The notes beneath the pieces were generated by a model. It did no database searches, was not told the origin of the DNA, and saw nothing but the letters and a program-made list of their open reading frames with translations. Position numbers and translations under genes: made by a program. A stretch of 64,000 nt of DNA, from positions 451,842-515,841 of the forward strand of contig OZ242017.1 in assembly GCA_965204835.1 (NCBI GenBank). The letters are read 5' to 3'. This document shows, piece by piece, positions 6,145-54,327 of the stretch. Every line of letters starts with the position of its first letter. The stretch's first letter is position 1. The stretch comes from Dehalococcoidia bacterium (GTDB lineage: Bacteria > Chloroflexota > Dehalococcoidia > UBA2979).

Positions 6145-6231
6145 GCCGAAGTGGCGGAACGGCAGACGCGCTGCGTTCAGGGCGCAGTGGGGTTTAACCC
6201 CGTGTGAGTTCAAATCTCACCTTCGGCACCA
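6145..6231 (+). tRNA. tRNA-Leu (anticodon CAG), long variable arm
   Basis: Acceptor GCCGAAG/CTTCGGC, anticodon loop TTCAGGG, 87 nt with encoded CCA. Confidence 0.85.
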
Positions 6232-6246
6232 GCCAGTTCCACTCGC

Positions 6247-6322
6247 GCGCCTGTAGCTCAGGGGATAGAGCGCAGCCCTGCGGAGGCTGAGGTCAGAGGT
6301 TCAAATCCTCTCAGGCGCGCCA
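6247..6322 (+). tRNA. tRNA-Arg with apparent anticodon GCG
   Basis: Acceptor GCGCCTG/CAGGCGC, anticodon stem CAGCC/GGCTG, loop CTGCGGA (U33, G37), T-loop TTCAAAT, CCA. It lies 15 nt after tRNA-Leu. Confidence 0.6.
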
Positions 6323-6856
6323 TACCGCACCCCACTCCATCCGTCGCGACCACCCCGGGCGAATGACGCGCATCGCGTGCCTGCCTATCGGCGCGCCCTC
6401 GGCGCTTGCAAAGCCTGATCGGAAGGAGCATGATCAGGATGCAGACACGGGGAATGGAGGCTGATCGTGCAGTCGATCAGGATGTTCCTCGGGAGCGCGC
6501 AGCGCGCCTGAACCGGGAGGAGCGGACCCTTGGACAGAGCAGGCCAGGGCTAGCCGGGCGTCACCCTCCAGCGGTGACAGGCGGCGAAGGCCGCCAACCA
6601 CCGCAGCCAGCCGGAGTTGACGCGGAGACGGCGTCCGGCGAATCCAGGCAAACAACCCGTATCGGGCCCCGTGACACGGGGCCCGATGTGCGTCCGCCGG
6701 CAGTCGCCTCCGCGCCCGGCCCGCCCCGACCGATCGTTTCCACGGCCGGTGCATCCCTCGCCGCGGCCCATCGCGCCAGCTTCCCATTGGGCATACAATG
6801 CCGGTCTACTCGACCCGTCGGACCGTGGGGGCTGCGGCCGCCGAGGAGTGCGCCTC

Positions 6857-10801: not shown

Positions 10802-12670
10802 CTACTTGTCGATCCAGCCGTAGGCGATGATGTCGCCCCAGTCCTGGTAGATGTTCGTCGTGGAGAGCGCCCCGCCGAAGCGGATGCCGCGCAGCCACGG
10901 CTGGTAGACGAAGAAGCCGCCACCGCCGCCGATGACCGGGCGGTAGGCCTTCTCCAGCTCGTAGTTCCAGATCTCCTGGAAGATCGCCTTGCGGGCCTCG
11001 GGGTCGAGCTCCACCTGCTGCGCCTCGGTCAGCTCGTCGAGCTTCGGGTCGTTGAACCGCCAGCGGTTCCCCGGAGCCGTCGAGTGCATCGAGTTGTAGA
11101 AGTAGTTCTCGGCGTCGAAGCCGATGGTGCCCCATCCGGCGGTCGACACGTCCTCGAGCTGGCGGCCGACCCACGTCGAGTTGAACTCGGTGTAGTCGGC
11201 GGCGCCGCCCGTCATGGTGATCCCGACGTCGCGGAACATGTCCGTGAGGATGTCCGGGGTCTGCTCGTAGGCGGACGAGTACGGGAAGAAGATGTTGACC
11301 ATCTCCAGGCCCTCGGCGCCCGCGGCTGCCAGCAGCTTGCGGGACTCGTCCGGGTCGAACCGCGTCCACGGTCCGAGCAGGCCGTTCTCGACCGTCGGCT
11401 GCTCGTCCCAGACGAAGAGCCACGGGATGGCGTGCATGACCTGCCCGAGACCCTGGTAGAGGATCGTCATCAGCAGGTCGCGGTCGATCGCCAGTGAGAT
11501 CGCCTGGCGCACGCGCTCGTCCATGTACTTCGGGTTCTGCAGGTTCATGGCGAACCCGGTCCCGTTGGTGAGCGCGGTCAGGTTGATCTGGGTCTCGGGG
11601 TTGGTCTCCAGCAGGTTCTCGACCTCGCGGAGGTTACCGACGATGCCCTCGCCCGTGGCGACCTGCTCGGCGCGGAACGCCGCGAGGCGCGCGGCGCCGT
11701 CCGGCAGGTGCCGGAACTCGACGCCGTCGACCAGCACGTCGCGCTCCCAGTAGTCCGGGTTCGTGACGTAGGTGACCTTCTCGGCCTGGATGGCCTCGTC
11801 GAGGATCATCGGGCCCGTGCCCACCGCGGTGTTCTCGATCTCGCCGTTGTCCACCAACTCCTTCGGGTGGATCGACTGGTAGCAGCTCGCGAGCGGGCGG
11901 ATGAAGTCCGCGACCGCGCGCGAGAGCGTGATCGTCACGGTCTGGTTGTCCGGCGCCTCGACGCCGGCCGAGTTGAGCCAGTACCCCGTATGCACGCCCT
12001 CGACCGCGTAGCGGTCGTACGCGAACTTCACGTCCGAGGCGATGAACTGGCGCCCGTTCAGCGGGGCCACGTTCTGCCAGTAGACGTCGTCGCGGAGGTT
12101 GAACGTCAGGGACAGGCCGTCCGGCGAGCGCTCCCAGGAGTGCGCCAGCTCCGGCTCGATCTCGATGTTCGCGGGGTGCAGGTTCACGCCGCGGTTAAAC
12201 CCGAGGATCCGGTTGTAGACCATGTTGACGTAGCGGCCCGTGCCGCTCGCCGCCGTCTTCGTCGAGTCGAACGTCGAGATGTCCGTGCTCGCGCTGGAGA
12301 TGATGGTCCCGCCGGCCTTCGGCGTCTTGTCCGGCTCGGGGAAGTTGAACGGGAACGGCAGGTTCGCGTCCTGGATCAACTCGCCCCTGGGGAAGTCCGC
12401 CACCATGGCGTCGCCGTTGTCGTCACCGTCATCGGCGGCCGCCGTGGTCGTCGTCGTGGTGGTGGTCGTCGTGGACGTCGTCGATGTGCCACCGCCGCCC
12501 GAAGTCGAGCCGGCGCTGTCGTCGTCGTCGTCATCGCCGCCACAGCCCACGAGGGCGGCCGCAGCGAGGCCCGCGACTCCGATGGCGCTGCCTCGCAGTA
12601 GCGTGCGCCGGCTGGTGACGTTGCCGAACAACGTCGTCCAGTCGCGACCTTCGTCGCTATATTCCGTCAT
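10802..12670 (-). CDS. ABC transporter substrate-binding lipoprotein, family 5 (DppA/OppA-like), Tat signal
   Basis: N-terminus SRRTLLRG (twin-arginine) plus lipobox LVGC, then a poly-Asp and poly-Thr linker. SBP_bac_5-like body. GAAGGGGG precedes the ATG. Confidence 0.85.
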   Translation of the reverse strand: MTEYSDEGRDWTTLFGNVTSRRTLLRGSAIGVAGLAAAALVGCGGDDDDDDSAGSTSGGGGTSTTSTTTTTTTTTTAAADDGDDNGDAMVADFPRGELIQDANLPFPFNFPEPDKTPKAGGTIISSASTDISTFDSTKTAASGTGRYVNMVYNRILGFNRGVNLHPANIEIEPELAHSWERSPDGLSLTFNLRDDVYWQNVAPLNGRQFIASDVKFAYDRYAVEGVHTGYWLNSAGVEAPDNQTVTITLSRAVADFIRPLASCYQSIHPKELVDNGEIENTAVGTGPMILDEAIQAEKVTYVTNPDYWERDVLVDGVEFRHLPDGAARLAAFRAEQVATGEGIVGNLREVENLLETNPETQINLTALTNGTGFAMNLQNPKYMDERVRQAISLAIDRDLLMTILYQGLGQVMHAIPWLFVWDEQPTVENGLLGPWTRFDPDESRKLLAAAGAEGLEMVNIFFPYSSAYEQTPDILTDMFRDVGITMTGGAADYTEFNSTWVGRQLEDVSTAGWGTIGFDAENYFYNSMHSTAPGNRWRFNDPKLDELTEAQQVELDPEARKAIFQEIWNYELEKAYRPVIGGGGGFFVYQPWLRGIRFGGALSTTNIYQDWGDIIAYGWIDK

Positions 12671-12800: not shown

Positions 12801-13892
12801 CTACTCGATTCCCGGCATGTCGATGGGCAGGCTGTAGCGCCGATCGCCGAGGGCGTCGACACGCTCCCAGAACGCGCTCACCGGCGCGTCCTCGAGGTTC
12901 CAGGCTTGCCGCCAGATGTTCCAGTTATCGGGATCCAGTTGCTTCGCCTCCTCGAGGAAGCGGTCGCCCTCCTCGACCTGCCCCCGCTGGCGCAGGTGCT
13001 GGCCGATGCGGAAGTGGGCGTTGGCCAGCGCAGTCTCGTCCGAGGGCAGTCGCAGGTGGGCGCGCGCGTCGGCGTCGTCCCATGCGAACTCGCTCGCCGA
13101 TCCGTTGCGGGCCCAGTCCCGGATCGCGTCCATGTAGACGAGGCGCGCGCGCCGCATCTCCTGGAACGCATCGTCGGACCACGCGCCGGTCTCACGGTCC
13201 TGTCCCCGGAAGGCGTCGTTGGTGCCGGCGTACTCGGCGGGCCGGACGATGCGCCCGTCCCGGTCGATCCACACGGCCATGGGCACGTTCACCATGTTGA
13301 ACAGCTCGGAGATCACATGGTCGCGGTCGATGAGGCTCGGGTGGGCGGGCTCGGCGGCCTCGATCCACTCGCGGGCGGCGTCCGTGCCGCGGCTGTCCAT
13401 GGCCACCGTGATCACGACGAAGTCCTCGTCGGCGAGCTCGCTGTAGAGGCGCTGCCACACGGGCAGGTCAAAGCGGCAGCCTCACCACGACGCCCACGTC
13501 ACCAGCAGCACCCGCTTGCCGCGGTAGTCCGACAGGCGGTGGACGTTGCCGTCGAGGTCGGGCAACGCGAAGTCCGGGGCCTCCAGCGAGAGCATCTCGT
13601 AGGACCGCGCGGCTGCGTCCTGGCCCAGCACCCACACCTCGCTCGCGTCGTCGCGGAGGACGGGCTTGCCCATGTGCCGCCAGAACGCGGCGATGTTCAC
13701 CGAGCCGGGCGCGACGAACTCCTCCTCGCGGCCGTACGGGACGGGGATGCAGACGGGGCCGTAACAGAAGCCCTCGGGCTTCAGCTCCCAGCCGGTCACG
13801 CGCTCGGCCTCGGCGACGTCGAGCCAGAGGGCGTCGCCTTCGGTCCGCGCCTCGATCTCGGCGGGCCCGGATTCGGTGAGCAGGGTCGTCAT
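12801..13892 (-). CDS. TlpA/redoxin-like thioredoxin-fold protein with a C-terminal helical extension, interrupted by one in-frame TGA at 13482..13484 (candidate selenocysteine or point-mutation pseudogene)
   Basis: ORFs 13482..13892 and 12801..13460 are in the same frame and separated only by TGA. The protein reads ...RVLLVTWASW-[TGA]-GCRFDLPVWQRLY.., where the TGA takes the place of the first Cys of the redoxin WCxxC motif. Confidence 0.5.
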
Positions 13893-13983
13893 GCGGTCAC
13901 TCCTCGTGCGAAGCGCGGCCGGGGCAAGCCCGTGGCGCGCGCGTCCCGTAGACTACGCCCCGCTGCGCAGAGAGGAAGCCACG

Positions 13984-16896: not shown

Positions 16897-18711
16897 CTAC
16901 TTGTCGAGCCAGGCGTCCTGGATCTGGGCAGCGATCTCGGTGAACGAGTAGTTGATGCCCAGCGGACCCACGAACCGGACGCCTCGCAGCCATGGCTGGT
17001 AGAGGCTCCAGTACTGGGGAGCCGGCATGTCGATGCGGTACACCCGCTCGTGCATGCGATCCCAGATGTTGCGATGCAACTCCTTGCGCGCCTCCGGGTC
17101 GAGCTCGACCTTCTGCGCCTCCGCCCATGCGTCGATCTGCGGGTCCTCGATGTTGTAGCGGTTGGCCGCGGACTCGGAGTGGACCTGGGCGAAGAAGAAC
17201 GTGTCGGCGTCGAAGCCGTTGGCAGACCAGCCGTAGATCACGTCCTCGTAGGTGACCTGGATCAGCTGCGAGTTGTAGGACGTGTAGTCGAGCTTGGTGA
17301 CCTCGGCGTTGACGCCGACCGCGCCGAACAGCTCCTGCAGGATCTCGGCGAGCTGATCCCATGTCGCCGCGTAGTTGTGGTAGATCATCTCGAACGAGAG
17401 GTTCTCGGCGCCCGCTGCCTGCAGCAGCTTCTTCGCCTCGTCGGGCCGGTAGCCCCACCACTCGCCCAGCAGCCCCGACTCCGGCGTGGGCTCCTCGTCG
17501 AAGAGGAAGAACCACGGCAGGGTCGAGACCTGCGCTCCGTAGCCCTCGTAGGCGAGTTCGATCATGAAGTCGCGGTCCAGCGCCAGCGACAGCGCCCGGC
17601 GCACGCGCTCGTCCTGGTACGTCGAGACGGTCTTCATGTTGAAGGCGATCTGCGTCCCGGAGTTGACCGTCGGGCTCCACGTCCCCTTCACGTCCGGGTT
17701 CGTCTCCAGCAGCGCGTCGAGGTCCGCGACGGTGCTGGTCACGATCATCGCGTGATCGACCTGGTTCACGCGCATCGCCGCGCGCCGGGCTTGCTGGTCC
17801 TGCATCACGAGATGCTCGAGACCGTCCAGGAGCACCTCCTGCTGGAAGTAGTCCGGGTTCTTGGCGTAGAGCACGCGCTCGCCCGGCGACGACTCCTGCA
17901 TGATCATCGGCCCGGTGCCGATGGCGCGTTGCTCGATCGTCCCATCGTCGACGATCTCGCGAGGGTGGATCGTGAGATATCGGCTGGCGATCGGCGTGAG
18001 GAAGTCCGGCTGAGGCGACTTCATGTTCACCACGACCGTCAGGTCGTCCGGCGCCTCGATGCTGCTCACCGCGGTGAAGTACTGCGACTGCGCTCCACCC
18101 GCCGCGTAGCGGTCCCACGCGAACTTCACGTCGGCCGAGGTGAGGTCGCGGCCGTTCGTCGGGTCCACGTTATGGAACTTCACGCCATCGTTGAGGTGGA
18201 ACGTGTAGGACAGCCCGTCCTCCGCCCGTTCCCACGACTCCGCCAGTTCCGGCCGGAACTCGATCTTGAACGGGTCGGCGTCCGGGCCGGACACGAACCC
18301 GATCACCCGGTTGTAGGCCGCGCGACCGGGGGCGATCGTGCCACCCGCGGCCGAGACCGTCGGGTCGATCGGCCCGACGTTCCACGCGACGGCCTGCTTC
18401 AGTACGCCGCCCGGTTTCGGCGTGGCGCCCTCGGGCTCCGGGAACTGCAACGGGATCACGTTGCCGGCGGGTGTGACGAGCCCCTCGGGCTCGTCGGCCG
18501 CGGGCGCCTCGGTGGCCGCCGCGACCTGCGTGGCCGTCTCGGCCGGGGCCGCGGGCGCAACCGCGTCGTCGTCATCGTCGTCATCGCCGCCGCAGCCGAT
18601 CAAGGCCGCCGCAGCCAGACCCACTCCTCCGAGCAGGGCACCTCGCAACAGCGTCCGCCGGCCGTGCGCCGTCGCCCACCACTCGTCTGTGTACCGTGTA
18701 TCGCTGGCCAT
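16897..18711 (-). CDS. ABC transporter substrate-binding lipoprotein, family 5, Tat signal (paralog of 10802..12670)
   Basis: N-terminus GRRTLLRG plus lipobox LIGC, then a poly-Asp linker. GGAAGGAGGG precedes the ATG. Confidence 0.85.
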   Translation of the reverse strand: MASDTRYTDEWWATAHGRRTLLRGALLGGVGLAAAALIGCGGDDDDDDDAVAPAAPAETATQVAAATEAPAADEPEGLVTPAGNVIPLQFPEPEGATPKPGGVLKQAVAWNVGPIDPTVSAAGGTIAPGRAAYNRVIGFVSGPDADPFKIEFRPELAESWERAEDGLSYTFHLNDGVKFHNVDPTNGRDLTSADVKFAWDRYAAGGAQSQYFTAVSSIEAPDDLTVVVNMKSPQPDFLTPIASRYLTIHPREIVDDGTIEQRAIGTGPMIMQESSPGERVLYAKNPDYFQQEVLLDGLEHLVMQDQQARRAAMRVNQVDHAMIVTSTVADLDALLETNPDVKGTWSPTVNSGTQIAFNMKTVSTYQDERVRRALSLALDRDFMIELAYEGYGAQVSTLPWFFLFDEEPTPESGLLGEWWGYRPDEAKKLLQAAGAENLSFEMIYHNYAATWDQLAEILQELFGAVGVNAEVTKLDYTSYNSQLIQVTYEDVIYGWSANGFDADTFFFAQVHSESAANRYNIEDPQIDAWAEAQKVELDPEARKELHRNIWDRMHERVYRIDMPAPQYWSLYQPWLRGVRFVGPLGINYSFTEIAAQIQDAWLDK

Positions 18712-45666: not shown

Positions 45667-45680
45667 GAGCCCCCATCACC

Positions 45681-48600
45681 ATGGCCGGGGCCGCCCGGTG
45701 GCCCGTCGCTGCCCGCCTGACGGCGGCCGAGTCGGAGTGCGGCGTGATCGCATGGCGCAGCACGGCAGCACGCGGGTCGTTCGCCGACCTCGCGTGCGTC
45801 GGCATCCTGCTCCTCGTGGCAGCGCTCGCGACCGCCTCGCCCGCCAGGTCCGCGGAGTCCGAGAACCTGCTCCCGGACGGGGGCTTCGAGGACGGCGGCG
45901 CCGGGTGGTCGCCGTGGGCCACGAACGCCACGGTCACCGTTGACGGATCGGAGCCCGTCCATGCCGGGGCGGCGGCCGCGCACCTCGTCGCGGACGGGCC
46001 GGGGACCGTCGCGCTCGACTCGCAGTACTGGTGGACGCCGATCGATGAGCTCAAGCCGCTGAGCATGACCATCTGGGTCTACGCCGATGACGCGGGTATC
46101 AGCAACGTCTCCGCGCGCATCGATGCGCTGGACGAGGACGGCGTGGTGCTCGACAGCGCGAGAGGCCTGCCCGGCGTGGGCAGCGGGTGGGTGGAGATCA
46201 CCGCCGGGCCGTTGCAGGCCCCCGCCGGGAGCGCGTACGTGGGCCTCGTGGTGAGCGCCACGGCTGCGACGGCCGGCGCAACACTCCACATCGACTCCGC
46301 GTCCGTCACGGTCGTCAGCGAGGAACCGACGGCGGAGGCGGAGGCGACGGCCACGGCCACGGCGACGGCGACCGCCACGGCGACGGCCACGGCGACGGCC
46401 ACAGCGACCGCCATGCCGACGGCGACCGCCATGCCGACGGCGACCGCCATGCCGACGGCGACCGCCATGCCGACGGCGACCGCCATGCCGACGGCGACCG
46501 CAACGCCAACACCAACCCCCACCCCCACTCCGACTGCAACTGCAACGCCTACCGCGACCGCAACACCCACGGCGACCGCGACCGACGTGCCGGGCCCCAC
46601 GCCCCCGGAGACGGAGACCGCGACCGACGTGCCGGGCCCCACGCCTACGGAGACGGAGACCGCGACCGACGCGCCGGCACCCACGCCCCCGGAGACGGAG
46701 ACCGCGACCGCCGTGCCTGCCCCCGCGCCCCCGGACATGCTCACTCCCGGGCACCTCCTCCCGAACGCCGGCTTCGATCAGGGCACCTCCGGCTGGTCAC
46801 CCGACACAGACGACGTCGTGTTCACCGTCGACGAGAGCGCGCCCGATCGGGAGGGGAACGCCGTCGGTCGCATGACCGCCACCAGGCCCGGGACGACCAA
46901 CGTGGCTTCGCAGTTCTGGCTCACCGAGACGAGCGAGCTCGCCTCGCACACCATGCGGGTCTGGGTGTACGTGGTGGACTCCTCCATGAGCAGGGTGATC
47001 GTGGCGCTCGAGGTGCTCGACGCGGACGGGATCGTGCTCGCAACCGCGATCGCCCCGACAACGATGAGCGCTCGCTGGCAGGAGCTCAGCGTGGGATCGC
47101 TGCACCCGATGGTGGGGGCTCAGCACGTTCGCGCCGTGGTGAGCGGGACGGCTGCATCCGCCGGGGCAACGCTGTACGTCGACGCCGTCGAGGTCATCGC
47201 CACGACGCCGCCCCCGCCGGAGGAGCCACCACCCGAGCCCATCGTGACCGAGCCGCCCGACGCGACCCCGCCGGAGGAGCCACCGCCCCCTCCCACCGTG
47301 GCCGAGCCGCCCGACGAGACCCCGCCGCCCGAGCCACCACCCCCTCCCACCGTGACCGAGCCGCCCGACGAGACCCCGCCCGAGGAGCCACCACCCCCTC
47401 CCACCGTGGCCGAGCCGCCCGACGAGACCCCGCCGGAGCCGCCGCCCGCGCCCACTGCGGCCGCCCCGACCCCGACCCCGACGCCGACGCCCGAGCCACC
47501 ACCCACCACGGTGACGGCCGCGCGTGTGGTCGAACCGGTCACGCCGTCAGTGGCTGGGCCGCCCCCCGTGCAGACCTCGACGCCAACGGCCACGCCAACC
47601 GTGGTCGGCGACCCGGACGGGGCCGGCAACCTGCTCCGCAACGCCGACTTCGAGGCGGCGGGCAGCCTGGCAGCGTGGGGTAGCCGTGGCGGCTCGGCCC
47701 GCGTCGCGACGGACGGTGACGGCTCGCGCACGGCGCAACTGGCGTCCCGTACTTCCGCGACGAAGTGGCTCTACCAGGTTGTCCCCGTGACGCCGGGCGG
47801 GTGGTACGAGGCGGGCGCGCGGCTCGAGGCCCGCGACGAGGCCGAGGCCGCGTTGGTGCGCGTCGCCTGGTACGCGTCGGACGACGCGAGCGGGAGGCAA
47901 CTCTCCACGGTCGACTCGCCTCCCGTGCAGGGAGGAGCCGCGCGCGCGGCTGAGGTCGCGACCGGCGCGGTGCAGGCGCCGCAGTCGGCGCACAGCGCGC
48001 AACTGCGGCTGATGCTCCGCCCGCGAGGCAGCGCGCTCGCAACGCTCGTCGCCGACGACGCCTACCTCGGACCCATCACCGCGCCGCCACCGCCCGCGCC
48101 GACCTCGACGCCCACGCCCACACCCACGGCATCGCCATCGCCGAGCCCGACGCCCACCCCGTCCGCGACGCCCACCCCGACTGCAACCCCGGCGCCGGCG
48201 CCACCGACCCCGACACCCACGCCCGCCCCCACCGCGTCGCCGGAACCCACGCCCACGCCAACGCCGGCGCCGCGGACCGTGCAAGCCTCGACGCCCCCGG
48301 CCGGGAAGGGCGTGACGGTCGCGGAGCCGACGGCCAGTCCTCCCACCGTGGCCGCGGTGGCTCCGCCACCCACCACGGCCTTCGAGATCCCGCTGCGCAT
48401 CACCGCGCTGCTGCCCGACCCCGTGGAGCAGGGCCCCGACGCCCGCTTCGAGTGGGTCGAGCTGACGAACGTCGGCCGCTCGCCGCTACGCATCGGCGGG
48501 TTCGAGCTCCGCGACAACACGGCGACGCTCACGTTGCCGGACATCGAGTTGCCCGCGCGCAGCTCGGTCGTCGTCGCCGGTGCGGAGGCCGAGGTGGGCG

Positions 48601-49130
48601 AGGTCATCACCATCCGGCTCGACTCGGGGCTGTTCAACGGGCTCGCCAACGCCGGCGACCGGCTCGTGCTGCTCACGCGCGAGGGCGCCGTCGTCGACTC
48701 GCTGTCGTGGGGCGACGACACCAGCCGCTACGGCCCGCCCCTCGTGGCGCCGGGCGCAGGGGAGCTGCTCCGGCGGCGCTTCGCCCAGAACGGGGCGCTG
48801 GTCGCGGTGGTCGTCGCCGCTGACGACGCGGCCCCCGTGGACGGCGCCACAGAGGACGACACCACGGTCGCGGCGGCAGCAGCGCCCACCGAGGCAGCGC
48901 CGACCGCGTCGCCCCCCGCACTGGCCGTCGAGGTGGTGACGCGCACGCCGACGCCGTCCGATGCCAGCGCCGCGACGGCAACAGCCACCGAGCCGGCCCC
49001 GGACGAGCGGATGGCCAGCAACGGCGGCAACGGAGTGAACCGCGCCGCGTGGATCGCGCTCGCCTCGATCGCGCTTGGTGCGCTCTCGGGCGTCGGGGCG
49101 TTTCGGCTGCGGGAGCTGCTGAGCGCGTAG
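45681..49130 (+). CDS. large secreted/cell-surface protein: signal peptide, three carbohydrate-binding-module-like (CBM_4_9-like) domains separated by TA/TP/PE-rich linkers, a lamin-tail domain (LTD) and a C-terminal TM anchor
   Basis: Each domain begins NLL(P/R)N(A/G)(G/D)FE..G..GW. LTD signature ARFEWVELTNVG...LANAGDRLVLL...VVDSLSWG. C-terminal AAWIALASIALGALSGVGAFRLRELLSA. Confidence 0.75.
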   Translation: MAGAARWPVAARLTAAESECGVIAWRSTAARGSFADLACVGILLLVAALATASPARSAESENLLPDGGFEDGGAGWSPWATNATVTVDGSEPVHAGAAAAHLVADGPGTVALDSQYWWTPIDELKPLSMTIWVYADDAGISNVSARIDALDEDGVVLDSARGLPGVGSGWVEITAGPLQAPAGSAYVGLVVSATAATAGATLHIDSASVTVVSEEPTAEAEATATATATATATATATATATATAMPTATAMPTATAMPTATAMPTATAMPTATATPTPTPTPTPTATATPTATATPTATATDVPGPTPPETETATDVPGPTPTETETATDAPAPTPPETETATAVPAPAPPDMLTPGHLLPNAGFDQGTSGWSPDTDDVVFTVDESAPDREGNAVGRMTATRPGTTNVASQFWLTETSELASHTMRVWVYVVDSSMSRVIVALEVLDADGIVLATAIAPTTMSARWQELSVGSLHPMVGAQHVRAVVSGTAASAGATLYVDAVEVIATTPPPPEEPPPEPIVTEPPDATPPEEPPPPPTVAEPPDETPPPEPPPPPTVTEPPDETPPEEPPPPPTVAEPPDETPPEPPPAPTAAAPTPTPTPTPEPPPTTVTAARVVEPVTPSVAGPPPVQTSTPTATPTVVGDPDGAGNLLRNADFEAAGSLAAWGSRGGSARVATDGDGSRTAQLASRTSATKWLYQVVPVTPGGWYEAGARLEARDEAEAALVRVAWYASDDASGRQLSTVDSPPVQGGAARAAEVATGAVQAPQSAHSAQLRLMLRPRGSALATLVADDAYLGPITAPPPPAPTSTPTPTPTASPSPSPTPTPSATPTPTATPAPAPPTPTPTPAPTASPEPTPTPTPAPRTVQASTPPAGKGVTVAEPTASPPTVAAVAPPPTTAFEIPLRITALLPDPVEQGPDARFEWVELTNVGRSPLRIGGFELRDNTATLTLPDIELPARSSVVVAGAEAEVGEVITIRLDSGLFNGLANAGDRLVLLTREGAVVDSLSWGDDTSRYGPPLVAPGAGELLRRRFAQNGALVAVVVAADDAAPVDGATEDDTTVAAAAAPTEAAPTASPPALAVEVVTRTPTPSDASAATATATEPAPDERMASNGGNGVNRAAWIALASIALGALSGVGAFRLRELLSA
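46327..46560 (+). repeat. tandem hexamer/18-nt coding repeats (ACGGCG/ACGGCC; 5 x atgccgacggcgaccgcc = MPTATA x5 at 46413..46502)
   Basis: Seen directly inside the surface-protein gene. Confidence 0.8.
46584..46736 (+). repeat. about 3.6 copies of a 42-nt tandem repeat (DVPGPTPPETETAT units)
   Basis: Seen directly. Near-identical units. Confidence 0.8.
47209..47460 (+). repeat. about 4.5 copies of a 54-nt tandem repeat encoding PPEEPPPPPTVAEPPDET units
   Basis: Seen directly. Confidence 0.75.
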
Positions 49131-52989: not shown

Positions 52990-53170
<181 letters not shown>

Positions 53171-53280
53171 TGCAAGCGGCGTCCGCGACGCCACCCACCT
53201 GCGGCATCGTCCACTGCCTGCCCCCTCGCACGACCGGGGGCGCGGCGAAGCGCGTCCCCGCATGTGCTGGGAGGCGCGCC

Positions 53281-54327
53281 ATGACCCACCGATTCCCGAT
53301 CCCGCTGCTGCGACCACTGCTGGTCGTGCTGGCGCTGCTCGCGGCGTCCGCCGTCCTCGCCTGCACCGGCGACGATGACGACGAGGCGGCCTCGACGCCG
53401 CCCGCGCCCACCGCGACGCCGGCCCCGGCGACCGCGACCCCCACCGCGACTGCGACCGCCACCGCGACCGCCACGGCCACGCCGGAGCCCACGCCCACCG
53501 CGCCGCCCGCGTTCCCCGTCACCATCGAGGACTCCGACGGCGTCGAAGTCACCCTCGACGGGCCGCCGCAGCGCATCATCTCCTACTCGCCGGGCGCGAC
53601 CGAGATCGTGTTCGCCGTCGGCGCCGGTGACCGCGTCATCGCGGCCGACGAGTTCTCGTACTACCCGCCCGAGACGGCGGACCTGCCGAAGCTCGCCTAC
53701 TCCAGCCCCGACCCGGAGCCCGCGCTGGCCCTCAATCCGGACCTCGTCATCATGGCCAGCCGCCAGCGCGAGCAGGTCGAGCAGTTCCGCGGCCTCGGCA
53801 TGACGGTGCTCTTCATCGACTCCGGCAACTCGCTCGACGAGGTCTTCGCGACCATCGAGCAGTTCGGCCGCATCACGGGCAACCGCGAGCAGGCCGCCGA
53901 GCTCGTCGCGTCGATGCGCGCGCGCATCGACGCGGTCACGGACGCGATCGCGAGCGTCGAGGAGGGCCCGCGCACGTTCTTCGAGCTGACGGCGGACCTC
54001 TACACCGTCGGGCCGGAGACGTTCGTCGGGAACGTGCTGACGCTGGCGAAGGCGCAGAACGTCGCGACCGGGGCGAGCTCGCCGTTCCCGCAGCTCACCG
54101 CCGAGGCGGTCATCGCCGCCGACCCGGAGGTCGTGCTGCTGGCCGACGGCGATTGGGGCGAGAGCCTGGAGACCGTGTGCGCGCGGCCCGGCTGGGACGC
54201 CACCTCGGCGTGCATCAACGAGCGCGTGCACCCCGTCGACGGCGACCTCACCAGCCGCCCCGGCCCCCGCGTCGTCGAGGGCCTCGAGGAGATCGCCCGC
54301 CTGCTCTACCCCGACCTCTTCCCGTAG
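53281..54327 (+). CDS. periplasmic-binding-protein family lipoprotein (BtuF/FecB-like cobalamin/siderophore SBP)
   Basis: Signal plus lipobox AVLAC, then TGDDDDE and a TA/TP linker. PBP type 2 fold (RIISYSPGATEIVFAVGAGDRVIA). GGGAGG is 6 nt before the ATG. Confidence 0.8.
   Translation: MTHRFPIPLLRPLLVVLALLAASAVLACTGDDDDEAASTPPAPTATPAPATATPTATATATATATATPEPTPTAPPAFPVTIEDSDGVEVTLDGPPQRIISYSPGATEIVFAVGAGDRVIAADEFSYYPPETADLPKLAYSSPDPEPALALNPDLVIMASRQREQVEQFRGLGMTVLFIDSGNSLDEVFATIEQFGRITGNREQAAELVASMRARIDAVTDAIASVEEGPRTFFELTADLYTVGPETFVGNVLTLAKAQNVATGASSPFPQLTAEAVIAADPEVVLLADGDWGESLETVCARPGWDATSACINERVHPVDGDLTSRPGPRVVEGLEEIARLLYPDLFP

Follow-up and report, generated by a model that had tools for sequence, protein, structure and literature searches.

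Among described proteins, the best sequence and structure matches to the gene examined here are ResA of Bacillus subtilis (1st9/1su9) and TlpA of Bradyrhizobium (1jfu/4txo), extracytoplasmic thiol-disulfide oxidoreductases that pair a thioredoxin core and a TlpA-type insertion with a W-C-x-x-C active site. A family with a related fold, in which selenocysteine (Sec, U) alternates with Cys in the motif U-G-C, has been catalogued as a selenoprotein family since 2008. It was reported as "Prx-like (UGC-containing)" in pfam00578, with the motif UGC, the Global Ocean Sampling data contributing 46 Sec sequences and 855 Cys homologs (PMC2398784, Table 2), appears as "UGC-containing Prx-like protein" in PMC9312934, and is listed among the selenoprotein families in PMC13188914; it has also been published as a "UGC-containing TlpA-family" protein. 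The string "WAxxUGC", by which NCBIfam knows the family, was not found in our literature search, where the family appears under other names. Here we analyzed a 64-kb stretch of DNA from a Dehalococcoidia bacterium (contig OZ242017.1, 64,000 nucleotides, 71% GC; hereafter the window), which carries on its minus strand, at 12801..13892, a thioredoxin-fold gene interrupted by a single in-frame TGA. With a probability of about 0.9, judged from sequence comparison, this is a genuine selenoprotein gene of the known WAxxUGC family. The finding is correct yet ordinary and not new, and it adds little for the field because the family, its UGC motif and the alternation of Sec with Cys are already catalogued.

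Two open reading frames (ORFs) lie in one frame of the minus strand, 13892..13482 (136 amino acids, ending ...VLLVTWASW-TGA) and 13460..12801 (219 amino acids from a GTG). An earlier reading of these letters (the original prediction) had described them as split only by TGA, and the TGA at 13484..13482 is indeed the sole interruption between the ATG at 13892 and the TAG at 12803..12801. Reading through it yields the 363-amino-acid protein that had been anticipated as a complete TlpA/ResA-like domain protein, containing ...VLLVTWASW-U-GCRFDLPVWQ..., and a single Pfam AhpC-TSA/Redoxin domain spans the TGA at residues 104-216 (AhpC-TSA E 6e-17, Redoxin 2.3e-13; all profile searches used the read-through protein with C in place of U). 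The proposal that the TGA occupies the position of the nucleophilic first Cys is borne out by phmmer alignments to the solved TlpA/ResA-like structures 3kcm, 1jfu, 4nmu and 1st9, in which U137 falls on the first Cys of WCxxC and a one-residue gap precedes the second Cys in every aligned structure. U-G-C is thus one residue shorter than CxxC, as had been noted; the short spacing stands, but the motif called unusual is not new, as UGC is the family's published hallmark. The gene and its active-site codons are as follows.

12801..13892, minus strand: complete coding sequence of the probable selenoprotein with the TGA read through, 363 codons followed by TAG; belongs to NCBIfam NF041054.
13900..13905, minus strand: Shine-Dalgarno-like GAGGAG, 7 nt 5' of the ATG at 13892, read from the sequence.
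13482..13484, minus strand: UGA codon 137, a predicted Sec codon, at the first, nucleophilic Cys position of the thioredoxin-fold active site (20 TGA and 60 TGC or TGT loci; structure alignment).
13476..13478, minus strand: Cys139 (TGC), the second residue of the redox pair in the U-G-C motif, presumed resolving; invariant in the family alignments and in 80 of 80 loci.

The family assignment comes from NCBIfam NF041054, "ResA-like WAxxUGC motif-containing protein", an equivalog model (WAxxUGC_long) against which the read-through protein scores 323.8 bits (E 1.5e-96; curated cut-off 300) over profile positions 8-323 of 354. The motif W-A-x-x-[U/C]-G-C is present as W133-A-S-W-U137-G-C139. The features held in common are WASW-U-GC, a thioredoxin fold of the AhpC-TSA/cd02966 type, Sec/Cys alternation and a length of about 360 amino acids; no difference was found in the comparison with this family, of which the window gene is an ordinary member, and Cys-form homologs bear the NF041054 name in RefSeq (P0060). 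A score above this curated cut-off argues for a selenoprotein rather than a pseudogene.

The original prediction had looked to orthologs at this codon, and their alignment gave the classic Sec/Cys pattern. A homolog scan with one genome per GTDB species returned 190 relatives, and at the 80 loci kept the aligned codon is TGA in 20 and TGC or TGT in 60, within a motif that always reads [W/Y]ASW-[U/C]-GC. The TGA loci span at least six phyla and derive from Dehalococcoidia/Chloroflexota, Alpha-, Gamma- and Deltaproteobacteria, Rokubacteria, Binatia and Acidobacteria. In a neighbour-joining tree the Sec and Cys forms intermingle, which is the usual picture where Sec and Cys appear to have been exchanged repeatedly. 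Metagenome contigs were scanned with a pattern laid over W-A-S-W-TGA-G-C only, the hairpin described below being excluded from it; at least 120 contigs matched, and filtering left about 98 distinct family-member sequences among the matches listed. For the hairpin statistics, removal of non-family metagenome hits and of one frameshifted contig gave 115 distinct Sec-form 48-mers.

A candidate bacterial selenocysteine insertion sequence (SECIS) follows the TGA. With nucleotides numbered from the U of UGA, the RNAalifold consensus of the Sec forms pairs nt 19-23 with 29-33 (CUGCC, CGUGU, GGCAG; window 13466..13452), giving a conserved stem that begins 15 nt after the UGA and an apical loop that begins 20 nt after it, both overlapping the codons for Leu-Pro-Val-Trp-Gln. 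In most sequences the stem is lengthened by a sixth pair, 18-34, and across the family it measures 5-7 bp. This is a different element from the hairpin GCUGCC...GGCAGC of the original prediction, and the two share a 3' arm.

13452..13466, minus strand: putative SECIS hairpin, CUGCC / loop CGUGU / GGCAG (RNAalifold consensus, conservation and covariation).
13451..13480, minus strand: alternative hairpin of the original prediction, nt 5-12 with 27-34 (13480..13473 with 13458..13451); probably not the functional element.

The conserved hairpin, counted at 5 bp or more, is present in 21 of 21 Sec forms (the 20 loci and the window) versus 15 of 60 Cys forms, and every one of the 115 Sec forms has GGN or GUN as its loop codon (Gly 58, Val 57), versus 20 of 60 Cys forms; the sequences in these contrasts are mutually related, and the contrasts are not to be read as probabilities. 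Even where Cys forms encode the same LPxWQ peptide, the stem is kept in only 13 of 24, the remainder using synonymous CUC, CUU, CUA or CAA, as no Sec form does. Across the 115 Sec forms, 97.7% of cells pair at 18-23/29-34 and 41 cells carry compensatory changes, neither value being reached by any of 500 shuffles, and the best register-shifted control pairs at 68%. The pair 19-33 is CG in 93 sequences, UA in 11 and UG in 8, the UA cases representing a synonymous double change from CUG/CAG to UUG/CAA, while the pair 18-34 is CG in 69, UA in 25, GC in 4, UG in 4 and AU in 1.

Published constraints for bacterial SECIS elements call for 3-9 nt in the loop, 4-16 bp in the stem, a G in the first two loop positions and a distance from UGA to loop of 16-37 nt (PMC13188914), and the conserved hairpin agrees with them in loop size, loop G, stem length and spacing (20 nt). 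Like the bacterial consensus, for which E. coli fdhF is the prototype, it is a hairpin within the coding sequence just 3' of the UGA with a loop of 3-5 nt in which G is followed by G or U; it differs in being very short and built largely from the codons of the conserved L-P-V/G-W-Q. No Rfam SECIS family was detected at gathering score in the window, including the hairpin locus. We infer that the hairpin at nt 19-33 is the bacterial SECIS of this family; its placement on the L-P-[V/G]-W-Q codons would leave Val and Gly as the sole residues that the loop codon can specify, in the Sec forms only.

The hairpin first proposed can form in this sequence, and in isolated RNA it is thermodynamically favoured, with a pair probability of 0.85 versus 0.15 for the conserved hairpin. 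Its suggested role as a SECIS was rejected: in the 115 Sec forms 74.3% of its cells are paired, which 204 of 500 shuffles match (best register-shifted control, 60%), and its 7 compensatory cells are reached by 422 of 500 shuffles, so that it shows no covariation. It also falls outside the bacterial SECIS constraints, with a spacing of 9 nt, a loop of 14 nt and no fitting loop G. Judging from ribosome footprints in general, a UGA in the ribosomal A site should place roughly the next twelve nucleotides within the mRNA channel; this hairpin would then lose the use of its 5' arm, and the shared 3' arm would be left free for the conserved one. The analysis yields, as a by-product, a definition of the family's putative SECIS with covariation support: a hairpin starting 15 nt past the UGA whose loop reads G[G/U]N, different from the thermodynamically favoured fold. 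As a separate observation among the metagenome Sec forms, the contig L090 (~6742..6800) has a one-base shift right after U-G-C (GCRSRSARLA...), and its UCUGCCAGGCUGGCAGA hairpin is intact and one base out of register; the shift reflects a sequencing indel or else a pseudogene of recent origin.

Several explanations other than a selenoprotein were weighed for the interrupted frame. The original prediction had itself offered a single-nucleotide pseudogene, in which a TGC-to-TGA change inactivated a CGC-motif redoxin and left the downstream ORF as a decaying remnant. Such a change is only one mutation away from the Cys found at this codon in 60 of 80 homologs, no Sec machinery was seen in the window, and public gene calls split the gene into pieces of 136 and 219 amino acids. 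The selection analysis nevertheless contradicts it. Four Dehalococcoidia/Chloroflexota orthologs are 88-94% identical to the window protein, and all five genes are 1092 nt long with the TGA and no other internal stop, so that the TGA has been kept in five genomes at up to 0.36 synonymous substitutions per site (pS), with differences concentrated at third codon positions. The ratio of nonsynonymous to synonymous substitution (dN/dS) against the four orthologs is 0.15-0.33 upstream of the TGA and 0.12-0.17 over the 226 open codons downstream, a pattern that shows both halves to be under selection and that of the downstream ORF to be purifying; together with the open frame and the third-position differences it leads us to reject an untranslated remnant. 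GC content at third codon positions (GC3) is 0.98, and at second positions 0.46-0.48, in the 50 codons on either side of the TGA, the downstream value again being unlike that of a decaying sequence. The recurrence of the TGA in at least six phyla and in the distinct metagenome sequences counted above, and the covarying hairpin that goes with the TGA and that most Cys forms lack, add to this, and we regard a pseudogene as very improbable. The selenoprotein option that the original prediction set beside it is upheld by the Sec/Cys codon pattern, the downstream purifying selection and the NF041054 score, and comparative evidence makes UGA 137 almost certainly a genuine Sec codon.

A true split into separately translated N-terminal (136 amino acids) and C-terminal (219 amino acids, from GTG 13460) polypeptides is scarcely credible. 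Both pieces are ORFs with possible start codons and public collections store them as separate proteins, but the break would lie within the thioredoxin fold, separating strand beta-1 from the active-site helix, and would remove U-G-C along with the six residues that follow. Moreover, on reading the sequence no Shine-Dalgarno-like element was seen before GTG 13460, where the downstream ORF nominally starts, the Cys-form homologs are all single chains of some 360 amino acids, and the eight codons between TGA and GTG are conserved as coding (GCRFDLPV). There is likewise only a very slim chance of an assembly or sequencing error, or of a UGA reassigned to Trp or Gly. One JGI homolog (P0083) does show W at this position, some pipelines may translate TGA as Trp, and TGA ranks no higher than second among the stops of the window; yet assemblies made independently in many projects carry this TGA, and the aligned residue in the homologous loci is always Cys, never Trp or Gly. 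The stops of the 38 confident window ORFs are TAG in 23, TGA in 9 and TAA in 6, and because TGA thus serves as an ordinary stop there is no global reassignment. A six-frame scan of the 64 kb found no second TGA flanked on both sides by coding-like sequence, which argues that the ORF pair is not a chance juxtaposition. On the same stop counts a separate remark may be made: high-GC bacteria usually favour TGA stops, and the dominance of TAG is unusual for a sequence of 71% GC.

Set against the selenoprotein assignment, or against parts of it, are the following points. The Sec machinery that the original prediction proposed to look for was not seen: tRNA-Sec, selA, selB and selD were not found in the window or in the window plus 200 homologous loci (1.94 Mb), flanks included, using ARAGORN and Rfam on the window, ARAGORN on the loci, and tblastn with SelA, SelB and SelD of E. 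coli MG1655. Most stem positions of the conserved hairpin are also fixed by the peptide L-P-x-W-Q, so that covariation information comes from two pairs only. The hairpin of the window clade is the weakest and shortest of the family, with 5 bp, a C-C mismatch at 18-34 and -6.7 kcal/mol alone, a borderline value against a bacterial SECIS criterion of a minimum free energy of -7.5 kcal/mol or lower; it reaches -12.6 kcal/mol only with a lower stem that, on inspection, seems unconserved in other Sec forms. In free RNA, prediction favours the fold that competes for the hairpin's 3' arm. Finally, no biochemical characterisation of any family member was found in the literature examined, and to the specific chemistry set out below, including the role of the N-terminal cysteines, we give somewhat less than even odds.

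Some Chloroflexi are known to use Sec (PMC1794560, Table 2; PMC5389517), and the presence of the gene predicts tRNA-Sec, SelA, SelB and SelD elsewhere in the genome of this 71% GC Dehalococcoidia-like Chloroflexota. The single SelB-like match, at one of the homologous loci (L068), is a BipA/TypA-type GTPase and not SelB. The tRNA genes of the window comprise tRNA-Leu(CAG) and tRNA-Arg(GCG), which lie 15 nt apart at 6145..6322 on the plus strand, and three further genes, none of them tRNA-Sec.

The protein has three regions, the outer two of which set it apart from its structural relatives.

13593..13892, minus strand: N-terminal beta-rich domain of about 100 residues with the invariant Cys43-x4-Cys48, having no characterised structural relative.
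13766..13764 and 13751..13749, minus strand: codons of Cys43 and Cys48, an invariant pair.
13239..13583, minus strand: TlpA/ResA-like thioredoxin-fold domain, residues ~104-218, holding U-G-C (Pfam, PDB matches, Foldseek).
12843..13190, minus strand: C-terminal all-helical TPR-like domain, residues ~235-350 (sub-threshold TPR_2 match, helices at 240-350 in the AlphaFold model, family-wide conservation).

The AlphaFold (AF2) model, made for a Cys form with 57% identity, has a pLDDT of 93.8 and shows a beta-rich domain at ~1-100, the thioredoxin fold at ~105-225 and a helical domain at ~240-350, and Foldseek with this model finds ResA and TlpA-like proteins as the best PDB matches (E ~1e-11, TM ~0.79 on the target). 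The sub-threshold Pfam TPR_2 match covers residues 290-323. Residues invariant in the family alignments include C43, C48, W133, S135, U/C137, G138 and C139. The likeness to ResA and TlpA lies in the thioredoxin core with the TlpA-type insertion and in an active-site residue at the same position after a conserved Trp. In contrast to their W-C-x-x-C, however, the window protein has U-G-C, and it carries an extra CxxxxC domain at the N-terminus and a helical one at the C-terminus, some 240 residues for which they have no counterpart; the N-terminal CxxxxC domain, without a characterised structural relative, is a further by-product of this work. The protein falls far below the cut-offs of the ResA/TlpA NCBIfam models (66 versus 170 bits and 53 versus 230 bits). 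It also differs in having neither a membrane anchor nor a signal peptide: no transmembrane segment or signal peptide was found, the N-terminus is acidic and polar, and Kyte-Doolittle hydropathy over 19 residues peaks at 1.02, in the beta-strand that precedes the active site. Since both kinds of targeting sequence are missing, the protein is probably soluble and cytoplasmic, unlike ResA and TlpA.

Two other thioredoxin-fold families were considered and rejected. Glutathione peroxidases (GPx) similarly place Sec or Cys first in the active site, followed by Gly, and their motif (N)VAS-x-U-G resembles WAS-W-U-G of the window protein; they differ in having no Cys two residues after the Sec. The match to PF00255 is weak (23.6 bits versus a cut-off of 27, residues 108-163), and inspection of the alignment revealed no residues matching the catalytic Gln, Trp and Asn positions of GPx. 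Likeness to peroxiredoxins comes from AhpC/TSA PF00578, the best Pfam match (62 bits), and from JGI homologs named 'peroxiredoxin'. PF00578 also covers TlpA-like proteins, so the match does not imply peroxidase chemistry, and membership was rejected because the peroxiredoxin motif PxxxTxxC is absent, the residues at -7 and -3 being L and A counted from U137 and T and W counted from C139 (RVLLVTWASWUGC).

We propose that UGA 137 would be decoded as Sec as follows. With the UGA in the ribosomal A site, the hairpin 15 nt downstream would recruit SelB and Sec-tRNA(Sec), its G[G/U]N apical loop being in keeping with the published bacterial SECIS consensus; both Sec insertion in this organism and the interaction of SelB with the hairpin are what we infer from sequence. 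Sec137 would then sit at the N-terminus of helix alpha-1 of the TlpA/ResA-like fold, where the attacking Cys of CxxC normally lies, and would act as the nucleophile on a disulfide, or perhaps a peroxide, as the oxidised substrate. Cys139 would resolve the intermediate through an Se-S bond across the U-G-C turn, and the Cys43-x4-Cys48 pair could plausibly serve as a further redox centre in exchange with that of U-G-C. More speculatively, and in our view doubtfully, the family may represent a redox enzyme of the cytoplasm that uses four conserved redox residues in an undescribed mechanism, in which Cys-x4-Cys shuttles electrons to or from a strained Se-S bond and the substrate is neither that of TlpA/ResA nor that of the peroxiredoxins.

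In public collections the family is annotated irregularly. The two halves of the window gene are stored as separate proteins, with the 219-amino-acid piece unnamed, and in protein searches Sec forms return as 219-amino-acid fragments because gene callers split them; a fragment from a related Chloroflexi metagenome-assembled genome is named "redoxin domain-containing protein". The consequence for annotation is that the two fragments should be merged into one selenoprotein coding sequence. Among the homologs, the JGI protein P0083 reads WASW-W-GC at the U137 column, its Sec codon apparently translated as Trp, probably by a source that used a genetic code in which TGA is Trp; such translation is a third mis-annotation route for the family, besides truncation and splitting.

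The gene has no conserved operon partner, as an all-against-all BLAST of ORFs within 8 kb at 81 loci revealed clade-specific synteny only. Its neighbours in the window encode ATP-binding cassette transporter components, a major facilitator superfamily transporter, a glyoxalase-like protein, a molybdopterin hydroxylase subunit and a CoA-transferase. Just downstream, at 10802..12670 on the minus strand, lies a family-5 solute-binding protein whose N-terminus (RRTLLRGSAIGVAGLAAAALVGCGG) is both twin-arginine-like and lipobox-like; a long low-complexity linker rich in Asp, Ser and Thr comes next, with some ten Thr in one run. A second family-5 binding protein is found at 16897..18711. Farther away, a cobalamin riboswitch aptamer at 53033..53125 on the plus strand (Rfam RF00174, 34.3 bits versus a gathering score of 31.5), matching model positions 46-168 of 189 only, lies just upstream of an ORF at 53167..54327. 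On the plus strand at 45669..49130, an open frame of 1153 codons with a GC3 of 0.90 lies in a stretch of 75% GC.

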